Source: a virus
Direction: 5' to 3' (one strand)
Virus record (IMG/VR): IMGVR_UViG_3300045988_084999
DNA length: 64,000 nucleotides
Below the pieces are notes generated by a model. The model did no database searches. It saw only the letters and a list, made by a program, of their open reading frames with translations, and was not told where the DNA came from. A program made the position numbers and the translations under genes. How positions within the stretch are numbered: the stretch's first letter is position 1; each line of letters begins with the position of its first letter. This document shows positions 42,136 to 60,666 of this stretch, one piece after another.

Positions 42136-42244
42136 GATTGATTGTTCTATTGTTTATAATTTTAGAAAAAAGTTTAACAAATTTTAGGACAAAACCAGAA
42201 AATTATGTTATAATAAAAGTAAAGAATAGTAGAGAGGTGATTTT

Positions 42245-42388: not shown

Positions 42389-42403
42389 AGGAGATTAAAC
42401 TAA

Positions 42404-42625
42404 ATGACTAATGATACTTATAAAGTTTTTACGGTAAAGTTAGCACGCAAACTTTGTGATCTTGGTTTTATTATTGTTGGAACTGTTCCTAATGTTTAGA
42501 AACCTTGGTTAAATGTTTATCTTTTTGAAGATAGTTAGGATTTAAGGGATGCAGTTTAGAAGTATAAAGGGATAAGTTCGCTATTGGAGGATGATTGCCA
42601 TGGCAGACAAAAGAAGAAGTCCTAA
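42404..42625 (+). CDS. Hypothetical small protein with 3 in-frame TAGs
   Basis: MTNDTYKVFTVKLARKLCDLGFIIVGTVPNV-TAG-KPWLNVYLFEDS-TAG-DLRDAV-TAG-KYKG…. Confidence 0.3.
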
Positions 42626-42989
42626 TTAGCGAACTATTAATCATATTCATAAGGAACCATGTGATACTAATAATATATATGCTAGGATTAATAAGGAAGC
42701 GTTATTTGCGGCCCGTAGAGAGTTGACAGATGGAGAGTTCTCTTTGTGGATATTTTTTGCTAGTCAATCTGAGAGGTTAACTGATTATGATTTTGGGCCT
42801 ACTATTATAGAAAAAGAGCTTGGTATAAAGAGAGCGAAATATACAAGTGCAGTAGATGGATTGGTAAAAAAGGGATATTTAGTTCCAGTTGAGAGAAAAG
42901 GATATTACGATTTTTACGAGATTCCTATTGATAGTGACGACGATAAGTATAATTATATAGCTCCAGATGGAGAGAAATTTTCTTTTTAA
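42600..42989 (+). CDS. Putative replication-initiator/winged-helix protein adjacent to iterons (contains TAG)
   Basis: In frame with ORF 42723..42989 (…ARRELTDGEFSLWIFFASQSERLTDYDFGPTIIEKELGIKRAKYTSAVDGLVKKGYLVP…). Functional call by context only. Confidence 0.3.
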
Positions 42990-42994
42990 TCGTA

Positions 42995-43260
42995 TTTCTG
43001 CAATACTATGAAAAATTTCATGTATTTCTGAGAATACTATGATTTCATCATATTGTGAAAAAGCTATGAAATTTTCATGTATTTGTTGGAAAGCGATGAA
43101 ATTGTTTTCATGGTATTCTGATAATACTATGAAATTAAATAAAAAGGATTTTCATAGCTTTCCAACAATACCATGTCATAGTATTCTGACAATACCATGA
43201 AAGTAAATAAAAATCCATTTCATGGTATTCTGACAATACAACAAATATAACATATATTAG
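42995..43260. repeat. Iteron-like repeat block (AATACTATGAAA and CATGGTATTCTGACAATAC motifs, each recurring several times); candidate replication origin
   Basis: The motifs ttcatgtatttctgagaatactatga, catggtattctgataatactatgaaa, catagtattctgacaataccatgaaa and catggtattctgacaatac all fall within about 270 nt. Confidence 0.45.
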
Positions 43261-43332
43261 ATAACAGAGTTAAGATAACAGTCGCGACTTTTTTATGTAT
43301 TTGTGAAAAAGCGATGAGTAGGAGGATTAAGG

Positions 43333-43723
43333 CATGGAAGTATTTAAACCGATTAAGGTAGAAAATTATCAATTCATGAAGAATGGATTAAATTAGTATG
43401 AACCAGTATTAGTTTACTTTAAAGATGATGAAGAAGAAGGCAAGGTATATTTTGTAAAGAATAAATTTGATGATAAGTTAGAAGAATGGATGGAAGAGAA
43501 TTTAAAGGTAGAAGGAAGAAGTAGAGTTATAGTAGATAAGTATCATAATAGGATAAGTATAGATGTTTTTACTCAAGATTTAGAGGACTCTATAACCGAT
43601 TTAGAAAAACGAATTGAAAAGTTAGAAGAAGGTTTTAGAGAAATCGAATTGAAAAATCGAGATAAAAATGGAGAGATATATGATTTGGTTGGAAGGATAA
43701 GAGAGATAAATAGAACTGGATAG
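43333..43723 (+). CDS. Hypothetical protein with one in-frame TAG
   Basis: MEVFKPIKVENYQFMKNGLN-TAG-YEPVLVYFKDD… is in frame with ORF 43490..43723. Confidence 0.35.
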
Positions 43724-43803
43724 AGATGTAGATTATCTTTATATGAAGATTGAAAGAAATTAAAGGAAATTAAAAGAAGTTTATAAAATGATGGAGTTGG
43801 GTG

Positions 43804-45122
43804 CCGATCGGGTCTAGGTACGAACCATCACAACACTCGTCACAACGATCGTAAACCTAGCCTTCCGCGATTATAATATATATAAAAAAGGAGAGAAGCT
43901 ACAATACTTCTCTCTCCTTTAATCTTTTTCCTCTTGTTACTTTAAATGCTTCAAAAACTCCATAATACTATCTTCATCAGACTTAGTATTACCCTTAACC
44001 TGAGGCACACTCTTTGCGAGAGCATCAGAAATAGAGTCAACAGCAATGTCAATTACTTCATCAAGACTCTTTGCATTGACTACTCGAGCGGAAGTCTTAG
44101 CAGTTACAGTCATAGCCTGCATAAACTGCTTAATATCATTTGCTGTCCACTTAGGATTGCTCTTGCTATAAACCAGCGCAGCTACACGACCAACGTCATC
44201 CTCAGTGAGAGACAAATCATCAACATTGCCATAAAAAGTAGACTCAATCTCATCCAGAAGAATATCTCGTTCATGGTCTGCGGCGTTAGCCTCGGAGATT
44301 CTATTCATAGCATCAGTAAATGCCTTTGCAATCTCCTCCTGAGTAGAACCATTCTGCATTGCATCACGAATCATAATCTCATAACTATTCATAATAAGTT
44401 CTTTTAGTTAGAAAAAGCGTTATGATGCTTCTTAAACTAAAATCCTCCTTTTCTTTATCTTATGTATATATTATATTATATTTTTTATATATTGTCGAAC
44501 CGATCGGGTCTAGATAAAAAGATCGCTTTAACGGAATCCCGCGGAAAAGATTTTTCCTTTTCAAATAGTTAGCAACATCTTTACTATTGTTTGCTGTATC
44601 TTTAATGGTTTTAATTCTGTGAATATCAAGAAATTTTGAGAAAAACGAGGCATTTTTTGCTTATTTTTAAGTAAATTTGTTAGAAAAACGCGCATTTTTG
44701 CAAGATTTTAGAGGTTTTTTGTTATATTTTGCGATAACAAGAGGTAAAAGATCGCGGGCCGATCGGTTTATCTAGCTAAAATCTCTATTTTTGAGCTATT
44801 TTTATCATAAAATCGTGTTAAACCGATCGGTTCCGCGAAAGAAATCTCTGGTCGTATTTGTTTTTCATAGCTATATCTTTGCTATTGCTAGTTGTATTTT
44901 AGAAAGTTTTGGTACTGTGAATACTTGACAATTTTAAGATTTTTATTATAAAAAATTGGACGAGAGAGCCAATATTGCTGGACCGATCGGAACTAGATAA
45001 AGAAAGAAGTAAAGTAGGGCCGATCGGTGTTTGAAAGATGGCGTTATGAATTTTGGGAAAATTGCTATGAAGTTGCGTTATGGCCAAGTTGCTATGAAAA
45101 TTTTGCGCTATGGTCCGATCGG
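43804..45122. repeat. Array of seven copies of the 8-bp GC palindrome CCGATCGG (several extended as CCGATCGG-n-TCTAGATAAA) in the largest non-coding stretch
   Basis: Copies at 43804, 44500, 44759, 44823, 44983, 45020 and 45115. The genome is about 33% GC, so this is strongly non-random. Confidence 0.5.
43937..44392 (-). CDS. Hypothetical protein
   Basis: 151 aa, with promoter motif upstream. Confidence 0.35.
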   Translation of the reverse strand: MNSYEIMIRDAMQNGSTQEEIAKAFTDAMNRISEANAADHERDILLDEIESTFYGNVDDLSLTEDDVGRVAALVYSKSNPKWTANDIKQFMQAMTVTAKTSARVVNAKSLDEVIDIAVDSISDALAKSVPQVKGNTKSDEDSIMEFLKHLK

Positions 45123-45206
45123 GGAAATTCGGGCCGAGTCGCCCGCGACCGGCCCGTCGAGTTTAGAAAATATAAAATAAAAAGAGAGGCCAAAGCCTCT
45201 CTTTTC

Positions 45207-45458
45207 TTAATCCTCGTTTTCTAAATTGATTTCTCCTATACAGTTACACCGTATCGGAGATTCAAAAACAAATTCATCTCCATATCCAACGATAGTTATT
45301 TCTCCATACTTTTTACAATACTCGTCTATCTTTTCGATTAGACTATTCCAATCTTTCTCTTGCGCTTTTTGTTTTCTAAGTGCCACTTCTTTATAGGCGG
45401 TAGCACTCAACCATTGCAACTCCTCATCATTCAGTTTGTTGAAATCAATATCAACCAT
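45207..45458 (-). CDS. Hypothetical protein
   Basis: 83 aa. Confidence 0.3.
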   Translation of the reverse strand: MVDIDFNKLNDEELQWLSATAYKEVALRKQKAQEKDWNSLIEKIDEYCKKYGEITIVGYGDEFVFESPIRCNCIGEINLENED

Positions 45459-45475: not shown

Positions 45476-45964
45476 TTAATGAAAAATCTCAGCCGGAATT
45501 TCACTAAAAACTTGCTTAAATTGCTCCATAGTCAGTTCTCTTGCCGCTCTCTCGACCCTTTCTTTTGCCCAGTCGCAAACCATTTCACAAGAAATAAATT
45601 TAATTTCATACCCGGTAATGGCGTAGATTTTAGGCGACCACTCAAATCTTTTTGTATCAGCCATATTTCCAGTTAAAATCATATATTCGCCGGTGGCTTG
45701 ATTTTCTTCTGACTGTTCAACCCAACATTGAACTATATTTTCAACATAGTTTTTCCCCGTTTTAACCGCTTCTTTTTCGGTTCGAGCATTGATTAAAAAG
45801 GTAGAAAGCATAATATCATCACGAAATGATACCGTAAATTTATAAGGCTTCTTAGAGAAGATACCCTTGCGACCTTCACACCAAAAGGTAACTTGAAAAT
45901 TAACACGAAATTGTTTCAGACTTTCCATTTCTTTTATCTCCTTTCCATGGTTAAATGATACCAC
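45476..45964 (-). CDS. Hypothetical protein
   Basis: 162 aa. Confidence 0.35.
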   Translation of the reverse strand: MVSFNHGKEIKEMESLKQFRVNFQVTFWCEGRKGIFSKKPYKFTVSFRDDIMLSTFLINARTEKEAVKTGKNYVENIVQCWVEQSEENQATGEYMILTGNMADTKRFEWSPKIYAITGYEIKFISCEMVCDWAKERVERAARELTMEQFKQVFSEIPAEIFH

Positions 45965-46118
45965 ATTTTTGGGAGAAAGTCAAGCTGTCAAGTTGCACAA
46001 ATTTTCAATTCAAAATTGTTGAAAATGACAATAGAAGAAAAAATCGGACCGCGGCGCACGCAAGCGGCCCGCCCAAAATTTTGCGTAAAAAAATCTCCCC
46101 ATAAGGGGAGATTTTTCT

Positions 46119-46450
46119 TTAATTGAGAATTATCGGGTATGCCTTGCGAATAACCACCGTAACCATGGCCGGGGGAGTGTCGCACAAGAAACGGTCATTT
46201 CTGATAAAACGACCAATTCCCATACTCTGCCACAAAGTTCGGTTTACATCCTCGTATCGTAGGGTATTATACTTGGAAAGTTTGATATGCCAATCATAGA
46301 TAAAGGAACCATCTTCCGGCATGGTGTAATCTAGCGCCCGCTTATAATTTCTCGTATGTTCTGCGGCTCTGCGCTCAAGGTCATTTGTCGTACCAATCTT
46401 GAGAATATAGCGCCCCTTTTTGTCGATATAATGTCCGACATATAGGAACT
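46119..46450 (-). CDS. GIY-YIG-like domain protein with no canonical in-frame ATG for its N-terminal motif (possible non-canonical start or a pseudogene)
   Basis: The frame of ORF 46119..46322 extends upstream as …EFLYVGHYIDKKGRYILKIGTTNDLERRAAEHTRNYKRALDYTMPEDGSF…. This is a GIY-YIG-like core that precedes the first ATG. Confidence 0.3.
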
Positions 46451-46525
46451 CTTTTCCCCTTGTCTGTAAACTAACTATAACTTGCCTCTTTTCTGGTAGG
46501 GTCGGGGTAGGCCGACCCTACCCCG

Positions 46526-46843
46526 TTATTTCTTCGGCTTACGCTTTTGTACAAGCGTCAACTCGAAACTATCCCCACCAATAGAAAACGCAATCTGTCT
46601 TTCTTTGTTAGTAATAGACAAGTCAGCGATAGAGAATTGACTGTTTTTTTCCAAAAACTCTGCCAATTCCGCAATTATACCGCCTTTCGTGGCGTTTGGC
46701 TTGCGTTGCCGTGTAGTGAACTTATATGCGGTTGGCTGTTTGCGCGTTCCAGCATGGGCAAACTTTTGAGCGATTTTCGCCTTTTCTGGCGGTAAATCGT
46801 ATTCAGTCTTTTTATCAGCCTCTACCGCCTTATCATAGGCCAA
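46526..46843 (-). CDS. Basic hypothetical protein
   Basis: 105 aa. Confidence 0.3.
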   Translation of the reverse strand: MAYDKAVEADKKTEYDLPPEKAKIAQKFAHAGTRKQPTAYKFTTRQRKPNATKGGIIAELAEFLEKNSQFSIADLSITNKERQIAFSIGGDSFELTLVQKRKPKK

Positions 46844-46981
46844 TAAATCTGCCTCCTCTTCCGGCGTTAATTGCAGGGCTTTATACCTTGCAATCCGTTC
46901 AGCGTCACTAATGCGACTGGATATAATATCACCCCCATATTATAAGTTAGGGCGGGGATTTTCACCCCGCCCTATACGGGG

Positions 46982-47392
46982 TTACGCCATCTTAAAGAGG
47001 GACTTGCCCTTCTTCTCCGTGCAGACTACTCGACCATCGAGTTTCAACTGCCGCACAAGAGCGGCGACCTTCTGGTTAGAATAGGCCGTCAGATCAGGAA
47101 TAGCCTTAAAAATTTCCGTGCAGGTCACGCCATCGGTATCGGCGTCCAGACCAGCCAGATACTCCATAATCTGCTCCTTAAAGTTTTCGTTCTCCTGCTG
47201 GGTGGGAGTCAGCTTCTTGTCACCGCTAGAGCTATTCTTCTTACGCAGAAGCTCCAGCTCATGGTCAATGACAGTAATAGCCACCTCGATGGTAGTGCCA
47301 TACTTTACCTCGCCGTCAGTCAAGAGGGCCTTAATATCTTCAAAACGCTGGGCCTTAGTAATGCGGATTTTCTTCTCGTCCATAATATACAT
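46982..47392 (-). CDS. Hypothetical protein
   Basis: 136 aa. Confidence 0.35.
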   Translation of the reverse strand: MYIMDEKKIRITKAQRFEDIKALLTDGEVKYGTTIEVAITVIDHELELLRKKNSSSGDKKLTPTQQENENFKEQIMEYLAGLDADTDGVTCTEIFKAIPDLTAYSNQKVAALVRQLKLDGRVVCTEKKGKSLFKMA

Positions 47393-48122
47393 CCTTTCTG
47401 GTTTTTAGGACTGTCCTTGTCCTTTGATTATATTGTACCACACTATTTGGTACTTGTCAAGAGGTTTTTCAAACTTTTTTCAAGAACTTTTGCCCTTTAC
47501 TTGTTTGCCCTCTCAACCTCCCTTATAGTGTAACACACTTTGGAAAGTTTGTCAAGCCCTTTTTATTTAATTTTCAAGGTACATTGCCTTGTTTTCTGTA
47601 CTTATTATAGCACATCTTCAAAGGCTTGTCAAGAGGTTTTTGAAAGATTTTTGAGAAATTCGCTGTCACTGTCTGCCGTTCGTCTCTCTCACTTTCTGAA
47701 TGTATTTTACCACAAGCAAAAGCAGATTGCAAGCGTCGAATTGCACAAAAAATCGGAATTTTGGGAGAGAGTTTTTGTGCAAAATTCTGCACAAAAACGG
47801 GACGAAATTTTTGTGCAACATTACCATTGAAAAATTCGGCCCGCGTCAGCCATCCGCGGGCCGTCGACCTTTTAGATATAAAAAAAAATAAGAGGGCTGT
47901 AAAGCCCTCTTAAATATCAATCATATAACTATAAACCATATCCCAAAGCGGCATATCATCCAGAAGGATATTTACAGTCAAAAGTCCGGTTTCTGTCGGC
48001 CCATCAACAAACCATCCCAGCCGCTGCATAAGGTGAATAACCTCATAGACATAATCGGGGTCAAGATGGTTAGTGGTAAACTGTCTTGAAAACATTTCTT
48101 TTCCTTTCTATCGGGCGGGGCT

Positions 48123-48914
48123 TTAAGCCCCTACCCGAATTGTCGGATTATTTTTCAAACTTGCGGAAAGTTGACGCTGAAAATCTGTCATAGGCGGAAA
48201 CTCTCTTTTATTCTCATACAGGGCCTTTCTCATGGGCTTATGCTGACGCATACAATACCACATGATTTCCGCCTCAATCAGAACATCCTCAAGCCCCGTA
48301 TGACTTTCTTCAAAATCGGTATTGCCAGAGATAAACCGCCACACGATTTCCGCAGTCTTGCGGGGGACACCATTAGCCTGGACATATCCGTTTTCCTGAC
48401 AGAATTTCTTATAAGTGGGCATATTGCAGATAACATCCTGTGTCATCTTCATAATATCCCAAATCTCCACGCTGTCAAACGGGAACCAATAACGCCACTT
48501 GGAGTAGGTCACATAACGCTGTGTAACTCTCAAGGCATTATCGTCAAATCTGGCATTATAAGCCGCAACTTCCTTAATGCCGTATCGCTCAATGGTATTG
48601 AGCATAGCTTGGCGGATTTCATAAGTGGTAGCCATTTTACGAGTGCCGGCCCGCAGTTCCTCAATATAGCGGGGAATTTTCCAATTATAATAAGCAGTCC
48701 GCATGAGATCCCGCTCATCGTTGAAAATGTCCCTATTTACAAAACTGGCAGTTTCATAAATATTGCCCTTGGTATCCACTACCGCCCATCCGCAATCATA
48801 GACAAGAACGCAACTCATATCCATGCGGGCTTTGCCGTTTTCGTCAGTTTCAGTCAGTGTGTTAGCAGTTTCAGTATCAACCACCAAAACATAGTGTCTA
48901 CGCTTATCAATCAT
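48123..48914 (-). CDS. DnaQ-like 3'-5' exonuclease (DEDD family)
   Basis: YVLVVDTETA and HTGLEDV motifs. Confidence 0.6.
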   Translation of the reverse strand: MIDKRRHYVLVVDTETANTLTETDENGKARMDMSCVLVYDCGWAVVDTKGNIYETASFVNRDIFNDERDLMRTAYYNWKIPRYIEELRAGTRKMATTYEIRQAMLNTIERYGIKEVAAYNARFDDNALRVTQRYVTYSKWRYWFPFDSVEIWDIMKMTQDVICNMPTYKKFCQENGYVQANGVPRKTAEIVWRFISGNTDFEESHTGLEDVLIEAEIMWYCMRQHKPMRKALYENKREFPPMTDFQRQLSASLKNNPTIRVGA

Positions 48915-49530
48915 AATCTTTGACTTCCTTTCCTCTTGTTGAGTTTATTATAGCACATATCATGCTTGATGTCAAGAGGAAAAGGAAATTTTTATTGCGA
49001 TTTACTGCAAGCTACTGGGCATTAGAACGGCCTATTCTAACGGCGTTCACTCGACTTACGACACAATATAAATTTACTTCCTTTACTTTCTAAGAGTTCG
49101 CGACCTCTTGATTTCTTGGCCTTCCCCTCTTGACAAATATATAATACCATACTTTCGGGATAATTACAAGATGGCAAATTGCACAAAATTTGCAAGCCAA
49201 AATTGTGCAACATCGACAAAAACAAAAACTCGGCTCGCCGCGTGCGCCAGCGAGCCGCCCAAACGATATTAAAGAGTAAAAATAAGAGGGCCGAAGCCCT
49301 CTTAATATCCAAGATATTCTTTATTGATAATCTCGTCAAGCCAATAGCTCAAATCTTCAAGCGAAATATCGTCATCAATTTCATTGTCGGCCATAACCTG
49401 ATCAATTTGACCAATGAGAATGGACGCATTTTTCAATACTTGTCGCTCTTCCTCGCTGAGGATAAGCCTATTAACCTTTCTAATCTTCATTTACAAAACT
49501 TCCTTTCTTATTTTAAGATTGACTGGTGGA

Positions 49531-49995
49531 TTACTCTACCAGTCGCCATAAGGCCGTAGGTAAATCTTCATGTGGCTCGATTGTTTCCCCTAAATGCCAG
49601 CCATCCCGCACACTTTTATTATCATCAATCAAAATGAAATTGCTAATTCCCGGCTCAAAGTGTTTCCGCACACAATTTGCTTTTGTTGTGCCATATTCCA
49701 CAAGGTGGACTTTATGTGCGGGGAAGTTGTATTTTGCAAGCCAAGTGCGCTTTGCGTCACGAACAGCAGTTTTATATGAGTTAGAACTGTCTTTTGCAAG
49801 CCAACTGATAACCCGAATTTCCCAGCCCTGCTCAATGAGTTTATTAAGAACGGTATTCAATTCTTCTATATCGCAAAGAGGTTTGGCGACTGTATATGGA
49901 TAGGGATTTTCATTCATTAAATCTTTTAACCAATCATCCACGCCGTACAGGTCAGCGATTGTTCCATCCATATCAAAGCAGAGCATCTTTTTCAT
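49531..49995 (-). CDS. HAD-superfamily 5'(3')-deoxyribonucleotidase-like phosphatase
   Basis: CFDMDGTIADL motif I; 154 aa. Confidence 0.55.
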   Translation of the reverse strand: MKKMLCFDMDGTIADLYGVDDWLKDLMNENPYPYTVAKPLCDIEELNTVLNKLIEQGWEIRVISWLAKDSSNSYKTAVRDAKRTWLAKYNFPAHKVHLVEYGTTKANCVRKHFEPGISNFILIDDNKSVRDGWHLGETIEPHEDLPTALWRLVE

Positions 49996-50194
49996 TTTGA
50001 TTTACTTCCTTTCTTTAGGTTGATTAAAGTATATCAGATTTCGGGATAGAAAACAAGAGGCAAACTGCACAAAATTTCGGCTGGAAAATTGTGCAACTTC
50101 TACAAAAGAGAAAATTCGGCGCGCCACGCACGTTAGCGCGCCGCCGAGAAGCCTATTCAAAAAATGGGATAAAAAAGAGGGCCGAAGCCCTCTT

Positions 50195-50656
50195 TTAACT
50201 TTCACATATATTTGCAAGAAATCTTGCAGAAAGTTTAACCATGTCATGGACAGATTCTTCGTTATTGCTATTTTTATAGCAAATAAAACCAAGCTGGTCG
50301 CCATTCACAAGAATTGGTGTAATAAACATACTTTCCCATTTTGTCGCCGAACTGCGAATATCAATCCAGTCATCGGGAACTCTTGTAATTCCAAAGGAAC
50401 GCGGCCCGCATAAAATTCCATCATTGTCAAAAATAGCCGCGGCGATTCCGTTAGATGAAAGGGCATTTTGCATTTGTTTAGCGTAAGAGGAAAATTCTCC
50501 CATTATAGAATATTTCTTAAAAACTACGCCGCCATCTTCTTCAAGAAAAATCTCTAATGGGTCGCCTTCTCTAATATGAAGGTTTCTACGGATTTCCTTT
50601 GGAATTACTATCCGGCCCAAATCATCAATACGGCGCACAATTCCAGTAGCTTTCAT
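50195..50656 (-). CDS. SpoVT/AbrB-type transcriptional regulator (AbrB N-domain plus GAF-like C-domain)
   Basis: GIVRRIDDLGRIVIPKEIRRNLHIREGDPLEIF. Confidence 0.6.
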   Translation of the reverse strand: MKATGIVRRIDDLGRIVIPKEIRRNLHIREGDPLEIFLEEDGGVVFKKYSIMGEFSSYAKQMQNALSSNGIAAAIFDNDGILCGPRSFGITRVPDDWIDIRSSATKWESMFITPILVNGDQLGFICYKNSNNEESVHDMVKLSARFLANICES

Positions 50657-50708
50657 TTTTATCTGCGGGAGTGCAAGATTTATAGTCTTGCACTCCCTTC
50701 CTCCCTTC

Positions 50709-51101
50709 TTAATCCAGTTCTTTCAACATCCGTTCGAGGTCAGCTTTAGTACCACCCAACTCAAGCGTAAGAATAATTTCCGTTACGGCATTTTTCTCCC
50801 AGTCGCTAACTTCCCGCATGGCCTTTTTCTTCTCGTTCTCCATAGCGGGGTAAATACAATCCTGGCAAGCCTCTACCAGCCGGTCATTATATCTGCGGAA
50901 ACTCATCCCCTTGTTTTTAACCTCCGAAAGAAGTTCGTCGTTAAGGGCTTTTACCGCCTGCTTAACTTTCTCCTGCATGATTTTACACTCTGTCTCATAA
51001 GCGGAAAAGGTTTCATGGACAGCCTGCCTCTTGATTTCAGCCTTTACTCCAACTTCCTTTTCAATATACTCCCGAACAACCTTACTAACACGCATTTCCA
51101 A
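50709..51101 (-). CDS. Hypothetical protein
   Basis: 130 aa. Confidence 0.3.
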   Translation of the reverse strand: MEMRVSKVVREYIEKEVGVKAEIKRQAVHETFSAYETECKIMQEKVKQAVKALNDELLSEVKNKGMSFRRYNDRLVEACQDCIYPAMENEKKKAMREVSDWEKNAVTEIILTLELGGTKADLERMLKELD

Positions 51102-51347
51102 AACTTCCTTTCTTAATTTTAATTTTTATTTATCGGGGTCGCCCCTTCCATGGTCTTATTGTACCATAGTTGGGGCGATTTGTCAACCCCTTACATCAAA
51201 GTTTTTGCAAGATATGCGAACATTAAGATTTCCGCCGCAAACATGATTTCAAGTCCTATGCAATCTTTTTCAATAGCGGCTACAAATTGCCATACCAGAC
51301 ACAGAACAAAAGCAATCAGAATTATCATGGTAAAAGTTGTCATATAC

Positions 51348-51674
51348 TCACCCCGCAAAGGAAACTTCCGCAAAGTTAATATTGAAACGCTCCCATTCGC
51401 TTTCCATGCCTAACATCATATCATGGAAAAGGTCATCACGATTTTTATATCCATCTTCTTCCAGAATAGCCTCCCATTCTCCATCGTCATATTGATTTTC
51501 CAGATAATCCAACGCAGACTTGCGGGCGGCGATGGTATTAGACGCTACGCAGATAGGTTTATCGTCGTATCCGTCCGTGACCAAAATCATTTTCTTTTCT
51601 TCCATGATTTTTTCTTTCCTTTCTTTCGAGGTGTTTCTGTCTCCCTCTTTCTGATAATAATATACCACAGGCAA
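51348..51674 (-). CDS. Hypothetical protein
   Basis: 108 aa. Confidence 0.3.
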   Translation of the reverse strand: MPVVYYYQKEGDRNTSKERKEKIMEEKKMILVTDGYDDKPICVASNTIAARKSALDYLENQYDDGEWEAILEEDGYKNRDDLFHDMMLGMESEWERFNINFAEVSFAG

Positions 51675-53693
51675 AGCAGAAAGTCAAGCGATTTTAGGAA
51701 AAAATTCTTCGTCAGATTGCACAACAATTCGAGTCTAAAATTGTGAAAATTGCCTCTTGATAAAAAATTCCGGCCGCGCCTATAGTGCACGGCCGGGCGA
51801 TCGAATAAAAAAAGAACCTCCTGAATTTCAGGAGGTCATTAATTTCTGCATACCAACAACTCCCTTTCTTTTGAGAAGTCAATCGGCATTTTCAACAATC
51901 TTTAATCCGTTTGCTTGGATAATTTTCATAGCTTCTTCAAGCGAGGAATCAACCGATCCGCAGTCAATACAGATATATTTTCTACCATCTTTTACCATAG
52001 TAGTAAAATAGTATTCCTAACCGGAAGTAAGTCCCATTTGTTCACGCAAGCGAATCGGAATCATAATTCTACCACTTGAATCTAATTTGCGAGAGAAAGT
52101 AGTTTCTTGCATTTTGATAAATAAATTCTAGTGACCTAGGCTCGTGCGAAAAACGACTCCATCACGGGAATCGCCGATTTAGAACAATCGGAAGGAACAT
52201 TTACCACTCGCAAGGCATTTTCTGGCAGAACTGAGACATAGGACAATTTTTACAAGAATCCTAGTTCAAACAGAACTCCAAAATAACCACGAGTGCTTTC
52301 AGCACTTCTAAGGTCATTAGAAAAACTCCTTTCTTTATTTTTCTATAATTATTATAATATATTTTTTTGAAAAAATCAATAGGGCCGGCATTACGCCAAC
52401 CCTAATCTCTGTAACCAAACCAGATGGTATTTACCAATGTGAAGTAGAACTGTGCCATATCCCTTATTTGTCCAAACAGTGGAGCCAATGGGATATGTGT
52501 GCGGTAAACGCTCAATACTCACTTTAATTCCACCTCCTCGAAAGCTCCAATTTTTAGCAGATAATTATATAAGGCTCTATCTTGCTTGTCGCCGGCATTA
52601 AAATCAAGCGTACGAACACAGCCGGTAACATTGGAATTGAGAGGATGACTCAAACACCAACCAGCCATATTACAAATTGTGTCTCCAAACTCCGCAGATT
52701 TTTCTACACTTTCAAATTTAATAACAGCAATCATATTTATTCCTCCTTTTTATCATGGGGAGTGGAGGTTTGTGGCCTCCACTCCCGCAAGTTTTCTTAA
52801 TCATCTACATAAATGATTAAATTGTTATCTCTTGCCTCAATGCCGGTTACCTGAAGTCCTAGAACCCATTCCTTAGATACCTCGATTACGTCTCCTCCCA
52901 GAGTTATTCTACCATCAGGTAATTCATGGTAATGAGCTTGGGTATTCTTATTGATAATTTCAAATCCCTCCCCGTCAAAGAACATAGTATCTTCTGCAAG
53001 CGGAGAAAGTAACCAAGCAACCATATCTAAAGTCATTTTTTTTACTTCCTTTCAAATTCTTTTTGTGGCCTGTCCCTTTGGACAAGTATATAATAACACA
53101 TGGCAAAAGGAATGTCAAGTAATTTCGGGAGAAAAACTTTCGTCGAATTGCACAGACTTTCGGTCATATAATTGTTGAAATTGCCGAATAAATAAAAATT
53201 CGGGCCGCGGCGCACGCTGGCGGCCCGGCGAAAAGTCAATATGGAAAAGTGCATAAAAATGACTGGCAATCTTTGTGTAGATTGCCAGTCAAGTATTATT
53301 CCTTTACAGCTCCATGGTTTCCATGAGATAGCCCGTGCCCATCGGCACCTCCCGCAGATTGCTGGGACTTATACGCAACTTATATTTCCTATTGATTTTA
53401 TTCGCCGCACTTGTCTTATCTCTTGCTTGGACAATTACTGGTATATGGAGTTTATTCAGAGTGGGCTTATTAAGACTGAAATATCCCATCTCTCTGCGCT
53501 TGCGGCCCATGGCGTCGATATAAGTCCCTCTATACATTTTTTTCCTCCTATTATTTAGTCATGAGAACGAACATATTATATTCGCTGTGCTGTGGGTTTG
53601 GCTCACAGTTATCCGCCACTATATCAGCCCAACTAAGAACTGCCCAGAGTAGGAGAGCGGCACAAATGCCGCCTCCTATCCGCTTAATAATTC

Positions 53694-53996
53694 TCATTTC
53701 CATTTCTTTGCCTCCTGTTCTTTAACCCATTCAGTACCGATTGTATCTCCGACCATAGCAACCTTATATTCGTCTTCGCTTGCAATTCTGGTATGCAGAT
53801 TGCTATTGATAAACTTTCTATTGATATAAGCCCAGTGTGGCATATAGGCCACTCGCATGGCATTAAAAGCATCCAGGTCTAAGATGATGCCGTCCTCTAC
53901 CTCTGCGGAACGCACATTCATCTTATACCGCAAAAGTTTAATAAATTCACGCTTTCTAAAAGTAGGCCCAACGAACCACTTAATATAATTGTTCAT
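53694..53996 (-). CDS. Hypothetical protein
   Basis: 100 aa. Confidence 0.3.
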   Translation of the reverse strand: MNNYIKWFVGPTFRKREFIKLLRYKMNVRSAEVEDGIILDLDAFNAMRVAYMPHWAYINRKFINSNLHTRIASEDEYKVAMVGDTIGTEWVKEQEAKKWK

Positions 53997-54263
53997 AGTC
54001 TTTTATCCTTTCTCCCCGTATAGCCGTTAGGTCAGCTTCTTTTTAATCTACGATTTCTCCACTGGATAAATCTACAATCCAATGATTGGGATTGACTATC
54101 TCGTGACTGGCTTTCCATCTTGCCATTGAAAGGGTGGATGGTTCATAATAGCGCATTTTCTCATTGGCTAAAACCTGTAATTGATACATATAGTATACCC
54201 CTTTCTTTTAATTATTATAACCCTGCCTTGCCTTGTGTTTTGCAAGGCAGGGTTTATAAACTG

Positions 54264-54632
54264 TTATCCTCTAATTTCTTCTTCTTGGGTCTTTGTCGCC
54301 CAATCAAAAGAGGTACGAATATCGGAAGGTCTGCGGAATTGCTCTGCTTCGGCTTCCGTTCCACCTAATGCCATAGCATAGGCTTTCCAGTCAACCGTTC
54401 CTTTTGCGGTAGTTTCTTTATATACCACCGCTTTCGCCTTACCCTGCATTTGTACCGTGCCATATAGATAACTTGTTTTGTCCGTAGCCTTAAAAGCCTT
54501 ACCTAATCTGGAGAATAGCTCTTTAGCCTTAGCCTTAGCTGCTTTCTCCGCCGCCTCCGCCGCAGACTTAGCCATCTTAGCCGCCATATACTCCATAATA
54601 ATGGCTCGATCTTCATTGGTAAAATCAATCTT
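54264..54632 (-). CDS. Hypothetical Ala/Lys-rich protein (start at MKKIDF)
   Basis: Internal start with RBS. The ORF-track version is longer. Confidence 0.3.
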   Translation of the reverse strand, partial: KIDFTNEDRAIIMEYMAAKMAKSAAEAAEKAAKAKAKELFSRLGKAFKATDKTSYLYGTVQMQGKAKAVVYKETTAKGTVDWKAYAMALGGTEAEAEQFRRPSDIRTSFDWATKTQEEEIRG

Positions 54633-55442
54633 TTTCATACTCTTTTGACTCCCTTTCTTTTTGTGGTGTGATTCTCTTTTGTTCTGTCTGTATTGTATCA
54701 AACCTTTAGCAGTTTGTCAATACCTTTTTTGAAATTTTTTAATTTTCAAAGTGCTGTGCTTTTGTCTCTGTCCTACTGGACAAGTCCAGTTTACCACCAA
54801 AACGCTCACTTGTCAATAGTTTTTTTGAAATTTCTTTCTCTCTCTTTTGCACAAAATAAATAACATCTTGTTGTGCAGTTTGCACAAACCCTTTACGCGC
54901 GCGTATTCCTTTAGGGGCGTGCTTTCTTGCTTTCGTACTTTAGCGAGCGAAAGAGGCCAACTACACTTCAATACTTTACCATGTGAAAGAGGGGCGTGTA
55001 TTTTGGGAAAAACTGGAAATTTTTTGGTGAAATCGTTCTGCCACGCCATTTCAAAATCTAAATCAACTTTTCAATCTCAATAACGAAAAAGAGAGAAGAA
55101 CTCACTTCTTCTCTCCGCATTTACACTTCTTCTTTAAATTATATATAATATGATCTTCTACTTTGTAAATTGGATATAATTCTCCACAGACTGCGCATAT
55201 ATTATAATAATGCTTACCGTCAAACCATACTAATACTTTATCCATCGTCGGTTGCCTCAAAACTAAAAATCAAATTATATCCATCCTCAGTTTCTATCGT
55301 TTCATATCCTTTTAAGATATATCCATCTTCTAATTTAATATTAATCGCATCAGATCTCCACATTGTAGGAATATACTCTAGCCTTGGATAACGATTGTTC
55401 TCCTCCACGCAAGCAGTCAACAATAGTAAAATCAAAACTATA

Positions 55443-55880
55443 TTAATTATAAAGCTGATACTTCTTCCCAATTTTGTCAATTTCTTCCGCCTCCATTGGC
55501 CTAAATCCAATACACGTCAAAGTCCCTTCCGGGCCTTCGCGTTCTAACTCTGTTCTACAAGCATCATAGATAAGCCAATAATCCTTATTCTCTTCCCATC
55601 CTAATTCTTCTGCTATCTTAACAGCCTTTAACAAATCATTCTTATTCTTCGCTCTACAAACTACTTTGGTCTCCGCTTCCGCTATCCAATTATGGAATAA
55701 GTCTCTATCGAGGCTTATTCCTATATGATACATAAGACCGTCTCTTTCTTTAACAACTTCTTTACTTCCCCAATATAACTTTTCCAAAAGAAAAGCAATA
55801 GAAGCATGGGAAACTTGTGCGGCAAGTTTCCCTGGAGACATATTTAAGTCTCGTCTCGCAATAATTAATTGCTTGAACAT
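55443..55880 (-). CDS. Peptidyl-tRNA hydrolase, PTH2 family
   Basis: KQLIIARRDLNMSPGKLAAQVSHAS N-terminal signature. Confidence 0.55.
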   Translation of the reverse strand: MFKQLIIARRDLNMSPGKLAAQVSHASIAFLLEKLYWGSKEVVKERDGLMYHIGISLDRDLFHNWIAEAETKVVCRAKNKNDLLKAVKIAEELGWEENKDYWLIYDACRTELEREGPEGTLTCIGFRPMEAEEIDKIGKKYQLYN

Positions 55881-56632
55881 TTTTCCAAAACCTCCAAGAA
55901 AATTCTAAAATTGCGGGAATTGCGGTTTGGAATCGCAAAATAGATATTTGGAATATTATAATTGCGGGCTGCGTTTACGAGCAAGGTGGCGACCGTTGAT
56001 GGATCTTGCATAAAAACACCACAGCCCCAGGCTCCCGCGATTAAATTTTCCACTCCCTTAGCCTCGGCAATCCGATACATAAAATTAATTCTCTCTTCCA
56101 TTATCCTATTGTTTAGAGAAAGAGGAACTTGCTGATAAGTATGTGCTGTTCTATAATTAGGAGAAGCACAAGTAATTACATCAGCTAATTTTCTACCATT
56201 GTCTTTTTCAAAGACTACATCAGGAGTATAGATAGCTCTATCAAGATATAGGGCTCGATTTAGTCTCTGTCTATTCCATGCGTAATAAGTATCATCAAAA
56301 GCAAGAAGAATAGGATAAAGGTTGCTTTCGTGACACAATGCCTCTTCTTGTGCAGAGCTGCCTCCAAGGAAGTAACCACCTGGATGTTTATAGCTTGCAT
56401 AATTTAAGATCGCAGTCTTGCTCCGATCGGTTAAACTGAATAGACAGGATACGCTATCTTGATCTTTAAGATAAAAGGTATTATGGTAGGTTTCTCGCGG
56501 TTTTTGCGGAAAAGGAAGATTGGGGCCAAAAATTTCAGAGTTTATAATTGCGCGATCTGTATCTTCCTTGAGTCTCACTTTAATGTCTGCGTAATGCGAT
56601 TGCGCGTGTTGTTTGAGCTCTTCTCGTTTCAT
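55865..56632 (-). CDS. Microbial-type PARG-like macrodomain protein (TIGR02452-like, ADP-ribose processing)
   Basis: …ASYKHPGGYFLGGSSAQEEALCHESNLY…AGAWGCGVF… motifs. Start moved to MKREELK, which has an RBS. Confidence 0.5.
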   Translation of the reverse strand: MKREELKQHAQSHYADIKVRLKEDTDRAIINSEIFGPNLPFPQKPRETYHNTFYLKDQDSVSCLFSLTDRSKTAILNYASYKHPGGYFLGGSSAQEEALCHESNLYPILLAFDDTYYAWNRQRLNRALYLDRAIYTPDVVFEKDNGRKLADVITCASPNYRTAHTYQQVPLSLNNRIMEERINFMYRIAEAKGVENLIAGAWGCGVFMQDPSTVATLLVNAARNYNIPNIYFAIPNRNSRNFRIFLEVLEKCSSN

Positions 56633-56856
56633 TGCAGTTTCCTTTCTTCCGTGCGGTTGGGCAGAAGTGGATAATTTAATTATCCCAATCTTCAAATAAA
56701 GTGTGTAAACTATTTGTTTCCGCCGCTAATCTCTTTAAATATTCTTTAAGCATTTTATTTTCTTTAACTTTAATTGCATAATCGCAAGTATTGTCGCAGT
56801 CTGGTGTGTACTACCGACCGAATCTATTATAACAATAATCAATGCAAGGACACATT

Positions 56857-57303
56857 TTACTCATATTTACACCCATTCATTCTACAGTCTATTGTGCATT
56901 GCCCTGACGCTCCTTCACAAGGAATAGCATCAGGATAGTATTCAAAATAAGACGAGGTTAATAGAACTTCATATCCAAGTTCCCGCAGTATTCTTTCTGC
57001 GACATATCTATCTCTTAATTTAATCCATTCTTCTCTATTTACTTTTGTTTCTTCATATATTTTTCGAGATTCTTCCATATCTATTGTTATGATACCATCG
57101 GTGTTAGTTTTAAATACTGAAGGACTTTGTGTATGATAAAATTTTCGAAAGGGATTGTTAATATGAAGAACTTCTTCAGCATATTTGTCAAAATCTCCCG
57201 AAAATTTCATTATCTTTGCGCCTGTTTCGCTAACTATAAACAATTTTTCATCAACCCCAATCTTGTTAATAGACCTACTCCTCCGGGGACAGGAGTTGAC
57301 CAT
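56857..57303 (-). CDS. Hypothetical protein
   Basis: 148 aa. Confidence 0.3.
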   Translation of the reverse strand: MVNSCPRRSRSINKIGVDEKLFIVSETGAKIMKFSGDFDKYAEEVLHINNPFRKFYHTQSPSVFKTNTDGIITIDMEESRKIYEETKVNREEWIKLRDRYVAERILRELGYEVLLTSSYFEYYPDAIPCEGASGQCTIDCRMNGCKYE

Positions 57304-57995
57304 ACATTATTTCTTTTTGCAATTTCATCAATTTCTACAAAGTCTCCAAGAATAATTCCTGCTTCATTTCTGCGAATACCAACATCTATAACAATAGCGT
57401 TAGGACAGGCTTCTCTTGTTAAGCTAAATTTTCCTACCGCAGAGACAATTAAATCTGCTTGCCTTGTTAAATAGAGTTTTGTATTTATATCTGTTTTGCT
57501 ATGACATACTGATACGGTCATATTTCTATCCAGTAGAGCTTTAGCCATTGGCTTTCCTACAATATCGCTTCTTCCCAAAATAACAGCAGATTTACCTTCG
57601 TAGTTAAAACCACATTCATCCAAATAGTCTATAATTCCTCTTACTGTTGCTGGAGTAATATTGCTCATAGGATTTAAACCATCCGCATCTTTAGAGATAG
57701 GTATTTGACTATAATTGAAATCAATTCCATTTGCTACTGGCATTTGAACTATTACCGCATCCCAGTCTTTCGCATGGCCTAAGAGTAATCTTAACTCTAC
57801 TGAACTATTCGCTCTAAACACTTCTGCTTCCCAACCAAGAGCATTAAAGTCTTTTATTTTATTACGAATATAAATTTGATTTGCGGGATCCTAGGCTGTT
57901 GCGTCGATAATCATGAGTGATGGAACATTACCACTAATCTCCCGCAATTTGTTTACCTATTGTTGAAAATATTCTTTTATATTAATCTATTGCAT
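57234..57995 (-). CDS. folD: Methylenetetrahydrofolate dehydrogenase/cyclohydrolase (FolD) with 3 in-frame TAGs in the N-terminal third
   Basis: The C-terminal NAD(P) domain AVILGRSDIVGKPMAKALLDRNMTVSVCHSKT…ADLIVSAVGKF is in the ORF track. The upstream frame continues as MQ-TAG-INIKEYFQQ-TAG-VNKLREISGNVPSLMIIDATA-TAG-DPANQIYIRNKIKDFNALGWEAEV, which matches the FolD N-domain. Confidence 0.55.
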
Positions 57996-58416
57996 CTGGA
58001 TTAAGCCTCCAAGGGTCACTAGTATCGTAATCAATCATTTCATAGAAAGATATTTCATTTTCATTAACTTCTAATACCTAGTGAGGAATACACTATACTT
58101 CATAGTCAAAATCTTTATTAATATGGTAAGAAGTATATATATGAATAGCAATAGGTCTAGGATCATTAACTCCCTAAATATCCCATAAACTTATTGCTTT
58201 ATTTTGGAAGATTTCCTAAGCATACTATGGAGATATAGCAATACTGATTATTAAGATATTAAAATAATACTATGCTTTTTTCGGTAAATCTAAATATGGT
58301 TCGTCAAAGAACATTGGCAAACAAATCTCCTATCTTATTTTTTATAATTATATTATAACATTTTTAAATAAATTAATCAAATAAGATTTGACAATCTAGT
58401 TTTTTTTTGTTATTAT

Positions 58417-59487
58417 ATGAGTATAAAAGGAGATGACAGTATGATAAAATTAGATTATACTATTGAGTCTCCAGAAGAACGGAAGGCGCTTGTCGAAAAA
58501 ATAATCGCAGAAAATCCGAACCTTAGTTCGAGTTATTTAGAAATATTAGCAGATTATTTAGTTCTATGTATGGAAAAGCAAGAGAAGAAAGAAAAGAATA
58601 TATTAACAGATAATAGAATGGCTACTGTTAATAAAAGAGAATGTTCTTTCGAAGGGCTTGCGTCATAGATGGAAAATGGCGAGGATGGCATTTATGGTTT
58701 AATGTCAGAAAATAAAAATGTTATATTTTAGCCAAAGATTTCTATTACACAGAAAGATTTAGATACTATACCATGTTTAAAATAGTTGAGAGAAACCATT
58801 AATGTCTGGGAGGGCGCTTTAAAACGCGCTGCTGGGACAAAATAGGCATATATGATGAAAAAAGCATTAATAGAGATGCGAAAAGATTAGTATATCATTA
58901 AGCAAGCATATTAGAAACCTATTATACCATGTAAATTAACGAGATCCGTAAGAACTCATATTCCTCTTGATGATTAGAGTTATCTTAATGGACAGGAGGT
59001 AGTAGTAAAGGGTATTTCGCTAATGGACGCCAATGTTGTTTCTGCTATTTTATGCAATTATTCAAAATTAAAAGAAGATAGTTATGATTAGTTTGAGGGA
59101 GATACATGGTATTTAATTCAATCATTTGAAGAAATATGTGATAAAGCTCTCAAAGACTTTCCAATCTATTTACGAATTGTTGAACTCAAAATTGATAAAA
59201 AGTAGAATAACGAAATATAGGAAATATTAAAAAATGAGTTTGGTAAAACATATAGCGTTGAATATATTTCTAGCCTATGGAGAAATAAGATTCCTAAACT
59301 CATTGCGGAAGAAGCTTTAGAAGATTTTTTACGTTGGTAGTATAAACAAAAAGGATACCCAATGAAAAAATGTTCTAAGTGTGGGCAATTAAAGCCAGCC
59401 CATAATCAATTCTTTTCAAAGAATAAGACAAGTAAGGATAATTTGTATAGTATCTGTAAGCGCTGTCGCAATAAGAAAAGAGGTTGA
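58417..59487 (+). CDS. Late-operon hypothetical protein with C-terminal zinc ribbon; about 12 in-frame TAGs; ends at TGA
   Basis: The frame of ORF 58417..58668 is continuous through the TAGs to …CSKCGQLKPAHNQFFSKNKTSKDNLYSICKRCRNKKRG-TGA. Sigma-A-like promoter (TTGACA…) at about 58391. Confidence 0.4.
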
Positions 59488-59493
59488 TTATAA

Positions 59494-60663: not shown

Positions 60664-60666
60664 TAT

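Follow-up and report, generated by a model that had tools for sequence, protein, structure and literature searches.

Composite cassettes of a hairpin, operator-like boxes and a promoter as probable punctuation between small-gene operons of a TAG-recoded gut phage

The 64,000-nt stretch of IMG/VR virus record IMGVR_UViG_3300045988_084999 analysed here (hereafter the window) originates from a large phage carrying 31 tRNA genes and a transfer-messenger RNA (tmRNA) at 13-33 kb, and contains seven copies of an intergenic unit, or cassette, all located within 45.05-53.24 kb in a region of small genes, where they head six short operons and one non-coding region. With moderate confidence we consider these cassettes as composite punctuation elements, combining a terminator-like hairpin, operator-like boxes and a promoter, which drive operons of small genes and promote gene shuffling in a manner resembling promoter-early stem-loop (PeSL) elements. 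According to this model, transcription would first be ended by the upstream operon's own intrinsic terminator, and a 27-nt G+C-rich hairpin, followed by one or two purines and four to six T, would form in RNA and act as back-up terminator or insulator; a fixed 70-bp A/T-rich stretch would then present two to four copies of the 8-bp motif TTG(CA/TG)CAA, usually arranged as a dyad with arms 24 bp apart, which probably serve as a platform for a sequence-specific DNA-binding protein tuning or shutting off the promoters. Behind a TCCCRAAA box, a sigma-A-type promoter with TGn-extended -10 would launch the next operon of two to four small genes, and homologous recombination between two units of ~110-150 bp would delete, insert or swap the operon in between. 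The repeat family, the hairpin with its strand, the geometry, the promoter consensus, the enrichment of boxes and the recombination junctions are results of the analysis, whereas termination, promoter activity and binding of a protein to the boxes are inferred. The original prediction had described the same family as about seven copies of an inverted repeat followed by a GC-rich stem-loop, and had interpreted it as a reiterated operator-plus-terminator unit. This observation is real and highly non-random, but it could be confirmed only in part, being mis-oriented and partly mis-assigned: every convincing gene at 45.2-57.3 kb is on the minus strand, so that the cassettes have to be read as the reverse complement of that description. 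Dyad and stem-loop are both present, but on the transcribed strand their order is reversed, with the hairpin first and the dyad after it; the terminator-like hairpin and the enriched operator-like boxes hold, but the unit had been read on the non-coding strand, and in the sense orientation a promoter follows the boxes.

Repeat search revealed a seven-member G+C-rich element of 36 nt at positions 45125, 46040, 47832, 49226, 50112, 51765 and 53196. A covariance model of the hairpin and its flanks (59 nt, 9 base pairs), built from the seven window copies and run with filters off, recovered these seven and no others in the window. Each is located on the minus strand, and expectation values (E) range from 6e-17 to 8e-14, the next match having E of 0.7. 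Six of the places initially listed as carrying a cassette are thus retained, but the one at 54820-54900 has neither a hairpin match nor a correctly placed TCCCRAAA box, and the copy at 45051-45168, possessing hairpin and box and no dyad, had been missed. Using the 263-aa protein encoded at 48123-48914, 22 further related loci were collected (together with the window's contig, L001, they form the set L001-L023), and 131 model matches were found in these 22, of which 130 are on the gene-sense strand. Their usual density is 5-8 per 20 kb, and all are confined to the same small-gene region. More matches are present in other IMG/VR contigs, in 148-kb contigs binned into metagenome-assembled genomes (MAGs) and, as diverged copies, in the published phage phAss-1. 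Full-text literature searches returned no description of these elements for this phage clade, the phAss-1 paper does not mention promoters and repeats, and the phAss-1 record has no features annotated on them.

Read on the sense strand, the cassette region opens with the stop codon and canonical intrinsic terminator of the upstream operon (e.g. AAGAGGGCttcgGCCCTCTTATTTTT); 10-25 nt further on, T(C/G)GNCGG leads into the 27-nt hairpin with a G+C-rich stem of 8-10 bp, succeeded by GA(A/G)TTTT and by ~14 nt lacking conservation. The A/T-flanked boxes come next, their commonest type being (A)TTGCACAAATTTT-N7-AAATTTTGTGCAA(T/C)TTG(A/C)C, and are followed by the box T(T/C)TCCCRAAA(T) and by a promoter with TGn-extended -10 and usually a good -35 element, after which the Shine-Dalgarno sequence and the first gene of the operon are located. 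Operons headed in this way comprise two to four small genes each, mostly of unknown function; when 20 flanking proteins were scanned, only 3 had any match in Pfam or PHROG.

Selection has maintained the hairpin as a structure of the sense strand. It has a folding energy from -17 to -22 kcal/mol, and over 100 distinct sequences 95.2% of the cells are paired, seven of the nine pairs are changed on both sides and 174 cells are compensatory (one pair of the stem, for example, is CG in 42 sequences, GC in 39, UA in 13 and AU in 5). None of 500 shuffles reached the observed pairing, which fell to 25-51% if the partner was slid by 1-3 columns. Because the alignment used had been fitted to the covariance model, RNAalifold was additionally applied to a MAFFT alignment of 20 diverse whole cassettes, and again this hairpin, and only it, was predicted together with compensatory changes. 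On the sense strand the stems contain 43 G:T pairs but only 6 A:C pairs; the structure therefore matters in the transcript of this strand (or in its single-stranded form) rather than in the complement. The TTTT behind the stem belongs to the most conserved columns of the whole unit, the T-run extending over 4-6 positions, and since this run is conserved and the site is directly behind an operon, back-up intrinsic terminator or insulator against read-through appears the most economical and most likely role of the hairpin. A simple terminator scan of the minus strand accepts three of the seven window hairpins as a whole.

The second component, the box TTG[CT][AG]CAA, occurs 12 times in the window, and 10 of these copies fall into 3.5 kb of intergenic DNA at 45-55.1 kb. 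Enrichment over background, on which the original prediction had staked its validity, was thereby obtained, as Markov resampling of the same intergenic segments yields 0.37 copies on average and three at maximum in 1000 trials. In the related loci the boxes have preferred positions and a density of 6.1 per kb inside cassettes versus 0.16 per kb outside, that is, a 39-fold difference. The exact dyad TTGCACAA-N-TTGTGCAA, initially attributed to each copy, was found by pattern search at two places only (0.00 expected); it is near-exact at 50065-50096, and in three copies one arm is degenerate, reading TTGTTGAA, TTGTGAAA or TTGCACAG. Spacing between the arms is 16 nt in the commonest type and 1, 4-5, 15 or 26 nt elsewhere, and the number of boxes per cassette ranges from one to four, with none in the cassette at 45051-45168 (M1; the seven copies are numbered M1 to M7 with increasing coordinate). 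Even a single box is pseudo-palindromic (TTG-YR-CAA), and two of them separated by one nt (box-N1-box) form compact palindromes at 54867-54886 and in some relatives. An RNA stem formed by the dyad was considered and rejected: among 38 cassettes with less than 80% mutual identity, 37-76% pair at each of the eight core positions and the departures are not compensated, nor is such a stem predicted by RNAalifold. Since the arms do not covary, the boxes are regarded as DNA sequence motifs, and the most invariant part of the dyad is ACAA(A/T)TTT of its hairpin-proximal arm. Judging by this pattern, they would suit a sequence-specific, probably oligomeric, DNA-binding protein. None of the host-regulator motifs in their commonly given forms (CRP/Fnr, Rex TTGTG-N8-CACAA, CodY AATTTTCWGAAAATT, NrdR, the Spo0A box TGNCGAA, DnaA and sigma-54) fits the boxes, and none is claimed; partial resemblances are seen to Rex, in compact palindromes at N7/N10, and to CodY, in half-sites whose spacing is wrong.

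The third component is the promoter. Six of the seven hairpins are followed by a promoter; that of M5 was read by eye, and consensus scan gave 9-12 matches out of 12, spacers of 17 nt and a TG-extended -10. The -35 element is usually good, with forms such as TTGACT, TTGACA and TTGCAA, and cassette promoters are conserved in relatives. On the basis of consensus they are predicted to be of the host sigma-A/sigma-70 type, which would indicate transcription by host RNA polymerase, i.e. of the early type. The highest score, 12 of 12, belongs to the promoters at 47604-47632 and 48947-48975; those at 47460, 51186, 53118 and 54720 score 11 and those at 47555 and 54816 score 10. Some of them account for what had been taken as separate recurring boxes, TTGTCAAGAGGTTTTT(C/G)AAA and TTGTCAATA...TTTTTTGAAA, which by consensus turned out to be ordinary strong promoters read backwards and not operators: the TTGTCAAGAGG...GAAA boxes are, in reverse complement, TTGACA hexamers of -35 elements with phased upstream A-tracts. 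Specifically, the TTGTCAAGAGGTTTTTGAAA boxes at 47455 and 47622 correspond to promoters on the opposite strand at 47432..47632, where three strong promoters with the structure TTGACA-17-TGnTA(T/C)A(A/C)T and phased A-tracts are arranged in tandem on the minus strand (47604-47632, 47527-47555 and 47432-47460) before gene 46982-47392. The TTGTCAATA...TTTTTTGAAA boxes at 54712 and 54805 correspond to promoters at 54692..54816, represented by two tandem units of the same class (54692-54720 and 54788-54816, minus strand) before gene 54264-54641.

The original prediction assumed that one dimeric regulator, either the SpoVT/AbrB homologue encoded at 50195 or a helix-turn-helix (HTH) protein, co-ordinates a block of middle genes by means of an operator combined with a terminator. 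We regard this as unlikely, even though the strongly enriched boxes are arranged as inverted repeats, the block includes a gene for a SpoVT/AbrB-like protein and the hairpin is terminator-like. The gene in question (50195..50656, minus strand; 153 aa; PF04014 with E of 1e-11 and SpoVT_C with E of 6e-5) is part of a four-gene block that is absent from the 98% identical locus L002, and it was not detected within ±10 kb in 6 of the 23 loci, all of which keep cassettes; because of this patchy presence it is unlikely to be an obligatory regulator. A uniform operator for a simple dimer likewise disagrees with the boxes, which vary in number (0-4), in orientation and in their placement with respect to the promoter, one cassette being devoid of them. 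No fixed-spacing inverted repeat covers the core promoter at every cassette promoter; as read from the sequence, boxes of the commonest arrangement are centred near -49 and -73 with respect to the predicted start, the dyad occupying about -45 to -76 and hence preceding the core promoter instead of covering it. Finally, promoters of the host type with extended -10 lend no support to a 'middle' class. Comparison of two conserved neighbouring proteins (46982-47392 and 46526-46843) with sequences of solved structures returned nothing usable, and no HTH candidate can be named from it.

A second AbrB-superfamily gene is located among the cassettes at 51880..52112 on the minus strand. It codes for a small AbrB/MazE/MraZ-like protein of 77 aa and has one in-frame TAG; similarity to MraZ (E of 1e-4) and MazE (2e-4) is below the Pfam cutoff, and the N-domain of AbrB is matched among Protein Data Bank entries with E of 0.008. 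The gene is found in 23 of 23 loci, mostly as the last one before a cassette, and on conservation alone its product would be a better candidate for the box-binding protein than the 153-aa SpoVT-like one. In most lineages it contains one in-frame TAG, although at differing codons, each aligned with Gln elsewhere (TSG*EYY versus VSGQEYY, LRE*MGL versus LREQMGL, EVR*IDG versus EVKQIDG), and no in-frame TAG is present in L006, L015 and L023. This coincidence of TAG positions with Gln demonstrates that TAG is recoded to Gln. One might imagine, though we consider it quite unlikely, that the ~110-bp unit is a fixed-geometry platform for this AbrB/MazE-like protein, whose translation would await the TAG-suppressor tRNA of the phage, so that the switch of the code would be wired to the shut-off or re-programming of all cassette operons. 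Further genes in the same part of the window are complete only with TAG as an amino acid, namely 57210-57995 (minus strand, 261 aa, four TAG, FolD-like as judged by eye), 56676-56876 (minus strand, a 66-aa open reading frame (ORF) with one TAG) and 52201-52316 (minus strand), a short ORF of ~38 aa that is rich in Cys, contains one TAG, has a separate Shine-Dalgarno sequence and is situated just upstream of the small AbrB-like gene; genes with TAG are therefore not restricted here to late ones. A suppressor tRNA with anticodon CTA, which reads TAG, is encoded at 14529-14604 on the minus strand within the tRNA array of 13.4-33.0 kb ('Pyl' according to ARAGORN), and the tmRNA is located at 24829-25149 beside the 31 tRNA genes (30 besides the suppressor tRNA).

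The distance between the hairpin and the TCCCRAAA box is the most rigid property of the unit and had escaped the original prediction. Counted in 110 unique copies between the G that closes the hairpin and the T that opens TCCCRAAA, it equals 70 nt in 69 cases, 69 nt in 27 and 71 nt in another 7 (103 of 110 altogether), while in the other seven copies the box is absent; in the window six cassettes have 70 nt and one (M1) 71 nt. In the commonest type the TTGYRCAA boxes begin ~20 and ~44 nt past the hairpin and TCCCRAAA is found inside the spacer between -35 and -10, at about -26 to -19 relative to the start predicted from the sequence; in other types the boxes flank TCCCRAAA, or four boxes are present, and the promoter is moved 4 to ~26 nt further downstream. 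The spacing is kept in all these arrangements as well as in the dyad-less M1, which implies that the hairpin-to-box module is constrained independently of the promoter. A 7-bp match in M2 prompted us to consider pairing of TCCCRAAA with the 5' flank or the T-run of the hairpin, and this option was rejected, as own pairs were no better than cross-pairs (permutation p 0.77 and 0.54, respectively). The fixed spacing would therefore be best attributed to a constraint at the DNA level, e.g. to a protein complex of fixed span. As a general promoter element of the phage TCCCRAAA was rejected as well, since the 64 kb contain it 10 times (6.7 expected) and never in a comparable context outside cassettes.

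Comparison of related loci revealed cassettes as crossover points for the shuffling of gene blocks, and gene content near them varies among relatives. Locus L002 is 96-98% identical to L001 and lacks 1619 nt from M6 to M5, the alignment blocks overlapping by 33 nt inside the cassette; the single cassette left at this place is a chimera with hairpin and tail of M6 and boxes, TCCCGAAA and promoter of M5, the switch being located in the shared CACAATTTT. Similarly, 1030 nt between M2 and M1 are missing in L003, with the overlap inside the hairpin. Breakpoints of megablast alignments mix divergence breaks with true indels, and clean indels were therefore analysed instead. In 22 loci they are represented by 46 redundant rows, which by our own grouping correspond to ~13 separate events; in four of them each of the two ends falls into a cassette, with overlaps of 5-57 nt, although cassettes make up 6.6% of the sequence in the compared loci. 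Some other indels end in tandem promoter repeats. The interval between repeats of the tandem array at 47432-47632 (minus strand) is ~80-95 nt, and in relatives near L008:11828-12012 the matching region harbours a 184-nt indel with a 50-nt overlap, which suggests a change in the copy number of promoter units by recombination.

Conservation of the hairpin in structure rather than sequence, its strand-specificity as in integron attC, the sharp boundaries and constant length of the unit and the gain or loss of gene blocks between cassettes may also bring to mind dedicated mobility sites, i.e. elements similar to miniature inverted-repeat transposable elements (MITEs) or attC-like folded sites for a site-specific recombinase. 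This possibility appears very remote. Crossover sites differ from event to event, being found in the hairpin, the spacer or the box region within the 5-57 nt of shared sequence, as would fit homologous and not site-specific exchange. None of the 70-300-nt indels among close relatives adds or removes a cassette by itself, which leaves transposition without a trace, and neither attC core motifs (RYYYAAC/GTTRRRY) nor terminal inverted repeats are visible in the aligned copies; no integrase-like protein is present among the neighbouring proteins scanned. On the grounds of varying crossovers, missing core motifs and the lack of solitary gain or loss, both the attC-like and the MITE-like types of mobility were rejected. 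Homologous recombination between copies, and modular gene shuffling as its outcome, would follow from the mutual similarity of the units.

Several observations are in poor agreement with the model of composite punctuation and have to be weighed against it. The hairpin is atypical as a terminator, having one or two purines between stem and T-run and a nominal loop of 9-11 nt (two inner pairs close part of it in some copies), and the distant relative L023 keeps only GAATTT, i.e. about three T behind the stem. A canonical terminator already exists just upstream in 89 of 116 unique contexts, and the model gives no reason why another should be required. For 18 copies and for phAss-1 (both examples, with perfect sigma-70-type promoters) it is a strong promoter, and not a terminator, that immediately precedes the hairpin, which would place the latter at the 5' end of a transcript, where a pure terminator role explains it poorly. 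The -35 hexamer is situated ~9 nt before TCCCRAAA or 4, 19 or 26 nt after it, yet the 70-nt spacing is constant, and the model does not explain this. As for recombination, the fraction of unique alignment breakpoints that falls into cassettes, 11.8%, exceeds their share in the sequence ~1.8-fold, which is modest, and only the clean indels are striking.

Alternatively the hairpin, with or without the boxes, might be a cis-acting RNA element and not a terminator, such as a 5'-terminal stabilising stem-loop, a processing site or a put/nut-like signal modifying RNA polymerase on its way from one operon into the next. Covariation of the stem and its G:U pairs on the sense strand are in line with this, and so is the start of the hairpin within a few nt of the predicted start of a strong promoter in the 18 copies and phAss-1 mentioned above, as well as the conserved GA(A/G) that separates the stem from the T-run, a feature ordinary terminators do not share. 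Nevertheless we find this role rather unlikely, because RNAalifold gives no conserved structure besides the single hairpin, neither its 5' flank nor the T-run covaries with TCCCRAAA, and mostly the box is in or upstream of the promoter and the hairpin behind a canonical terminator, so that they would be transcribed only by read-through. Rfam, in addition, has no match at the cassettes either at gathering score or at E up to 1, which led us to reject a known RNA family. The rigid spacing of 70 ± 1 bp, independent of promoter position, might alternatively be ascribed to a nucleoprotein scaffold of fixed geometry, origin-like or genome-organising, in which the hairpin is extruded or bound as DNA and the second contact is made at TCCCRAAA 70 bp apart; motifs similar to CCGAA(A/T)T recur at the 3' end of the hairpin, in the centre of the dyad and in the box, and the last cassette leads into an origin-like non-coding region of 700 bp with many CCGATCGG palindromes. 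We hold such a scaffold for highly improbable, given that the prevalence of G:T over A:C on the sense strand favours function as RNA or single strand and not as duplex, and that seven origins within 8 kb would be unusual.

The composite cassettes have their closest described counterpart in PeSLs of T4-type phages, where a sigma-70-like early promoter and an A/T-rich region are combined with a G+C-rich stem-loop whose terminator function has been demonstrated (Arbiol et al., 2010, PMC2839356; Comeau et al., 2014, PMC4122927). PeSLs gather among orphan genes, and recombination between their copies produces indels, chimeric cassettes and mini-circles (PMC2839356, PMC4122927). Both families consist of repeated units containing a G+C-rich stem-loop and a promoter of host sigma-70-type early class with an A/T-rich region upstream, both are concentrated among small genes of unknown function, and in both copy-copy recombination leads to deletions, insertions and chimeras with crossovers in the stem-loop or just after it. 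They have no sequence relationship, however, and the phage studied here is a TAG-recoded gut phage with a likely Gram-positive host from Clostridia. The stem-loop of PeSLs is variable in position, being inside the promoter or abutting it, whereas here it is found 75-130 nt upstream, at a fixed distance of 70 nt from TCCCRAAA; PeSL stems are composed of poly-G/poly-C and those described here of mixed G/C; operator-like TTGYRCAA boxes are found only here, and only here does a separate canonical terminator usually precede the unit. Mini-circles as well as terminator and promoter activity are experimental findings for PeSLs, while terminator and promoter activity of the present cassettes are predicted. 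In every testable respect, that is promoter consensus, stem-loop, location and junctions, they are PeSL-like, being analogues and not homologues of the latter.

Other known systems share particular features with the cassettes. In large lytic phages, for instance in the host-takeover module of SPO1 and in early promoter clusters of T5/T7, tandem intrinsic terminators are followed by strong early promoters, and the likeness extends to short early operons supplied each with a strong host-type promoter and a terminator and to tandem promoters with A-tracts; to our knowledge, these systems have not been described as one conserved unit of fixed length in which boxes are shared and the hairpin covaries. 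In cluster A mycobacteriophages (e.g. L5), stoperators are single asymmetric sites of 13-14 bp, possessing no hairpin or fixed module, for which repressor binding is proven. They resemble the boxes as many intergenic copies of a short motif oriented with transcription, one repressor silencing many units in their case; the difference is that their binder is established, while the boxes here are putative operators. Integron attC sites are also structure-conserved and strand-specific imperfect palindromes flanking exchangeable gene cassettes; here R/L core motifs, a fixed crossover and an integrase among the scanned neighbours are lacking, and the cassettes carry their own promoters. Oligomers of AbrB/MraZ/SpoVT-type proteins occupy extended A/T-rich operators in which several short repeats are found. 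In view of two AbrB-superfamily genes among the cassettes, oligomeric binding of this kind would suit a 70-bp platform with several boxes, although the boxes differ from the commonly given motifs of AbrB (TGGNA) and MraZ (a GTGGG repeat).

The cassettes thereby give a first map of predicted transcription signals (promoters, terminators and likely operator boxes) for a widespread clade of uncultured 100-190-kb gut phages with TAG recoded to Gln and associated with Oscillospiraceae/Clostridia. Cassette-mediated gene shuffling, described for T4-type phages of Gram-negative hosts, has on this result arisen independently in this very different lineage. Both the boxes common to the cassettes and their rigid 70-nt architecture provide a handle for finding the regulator that times early gene expression, and compact terminator-promoter units could become parts for engineering Clostridia.

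Individual copies, all on the minus strand, illustrate the extent of variation. M1 (45051..45168; 54.2 bits, E of 8e-14) has its hairpin at 45130-45156, followed by GAATTT, and the TCCCAAAA box at 45051-45058, 71 nt after the hairpin; it possesses neither TTGYRCAA boxes nor a gene promoter and runs into the CCGATCGG-rich non-coding region 44400-45130. M2 (45955..46083) includes the hairpin at 46045-46071, the box TTGTGCAA at 45993-46000 with a degenerate partner TTCAACAA, and TCCCAAAA at 45967-45974, i.e. at 70 nt, as in all subsequent copies; its predicted promoter (TTGACT at 45978-45983, 17-nt spacer, TGnTATCAT at 45955-45960) heads genes 45476-45928 and 45207-45458. In M3 (47704..47875; hairpin 47837-47863, TCCCAAAA at 47759-47766) four boxes are present at 47811-47818, 47788-47795 (TTGTGCAG), 47775-47782 and 47741-47748, and the putative promoter TTGCAA-17-TGnTAAAAT occupies 47704-47732. 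M4 (49141..49269; hairpin 49231-49257) has exact-dyad boxes at 49203-49210 and 49179-49186 and TCCCGAAA at 49153-49160 inside the spacer of the predicted promoter TTGTAA-17-TGnTATTAT (49141-49169), which heads genes 48123-48914 and 47910-48095. On the minus strand, between this promoter and the second, perfect one of gene 48123-48914 (48947-48975), an apparently non-coding leader of ~190 nt is located at 48960-49140, and leaders behind several cassette promoters open with a similar motif, (A/T)CTTGTC(A/C)A(A/G)AGGG.

M5 (50028..50155; hairpin 50117-50143) carries boxes at 50089-50096 and 50065-50072 (CTGCACAA on the plus strand) and TCCCGAAA at 50039-50046; its promoter, read by eye, would consist of an extended -10 with TGATATACT (-10 at 50028-50033) and a weak -35 TTGTTT at 50051-50056, heading genes 49531-49995 and 49302-49490. 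M6 (51659..51808; hairpin 51770-51796) has a box at 51717-51724 with the degenerate partner TTGTGAAA (plus strand, 51741-51748) and TCCTAAAA at 51692-51699, and the predicted promoter TTGACT-17-TGnTATATT at 51659-51687 heads the four-gene block 51605-50195 that is absent from L002. M7 (53090..53239; hairpin 53201-53227) comprises degenerate boxes at 53148-53155 and 53172-53179 and TCCCGAAA at 53123-53130; the putative promoter TTGACA-17-TGnTATTAT at 53090-53118 heads genes 52797-53036, 52519-52734 and then, past an internal terminator and promoter, 51880-52112. A partial or degenerate relative of the cassettes is found at 54840..54890, where TTGYRCAA boxes, among them TTGCACAA and the compact palindrome TTGTGCAA-A-CTGCACAA, and a TACGCGCGCGTA palindrome are not accompanied by a hairpin match of the covariance model.

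Directly downstream of M1, the non-coding region 44400-45130 (~700 bp) contains six CCGATCGG palindromes (nine versus 0.29 expected in the window) together with several CATAGC(G/A)/CATAACGC repeats, and it may be a replication origin or a locus of non-coding RNA. In the group L008-L021 a perfect TTGACA-17-TATAAT promoter precedes the hairpin ahead of the corresponding region.

The sequence nearest to the window is IMG/VR contig UViG_3300045988_091188 (104.6 kb), almost identical to it. Two genome contigs of ~148 kb (L101 and L102), i.e. of whole-phage size, encode the marker protein with 94-95% identity and belong to MAG bins of Oscillospiraceae and Eubacterium sp.; the bins are a hint to the host, fitting promoters of Gram-positive type, but binning is not proof. 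The sole annotated relative is phAss-1, a TAG-recoded phage of the human gut with a predicted host from Clostridia. Megablast gave a single match to any deposited phage, between 51135-51192 of the window and 133521-133579 of phAss-1 (OQ749652), comprising 58 bp with 93% identity; it covers a promoter TTGACA-17-TACAAT and the adjoining G+C-rich stem, and in phAss-1 this segment is non-coding and unannotated.

Beyond the cassettes, a peptidyl-tRNA hydrolase of PTH2 type is encoded at 55443-55880 (minus strand; E of 1e-22), and the adjoining gene 55865-56635 (minus strand) codes for a microbial-type poly(ADP-ribose) glycohydrolase/macro-domain protein (E of 1.5e-26); both may have counter-defence functions. 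GC skew changes its sign at 42000-44000 and 58000-64000 of the window, reaching +0.2 to +0.3 there versus about -0.15 elsewhere, and these flips are switches of the coding strand on either side of the cassette-bearing minus-strand block.

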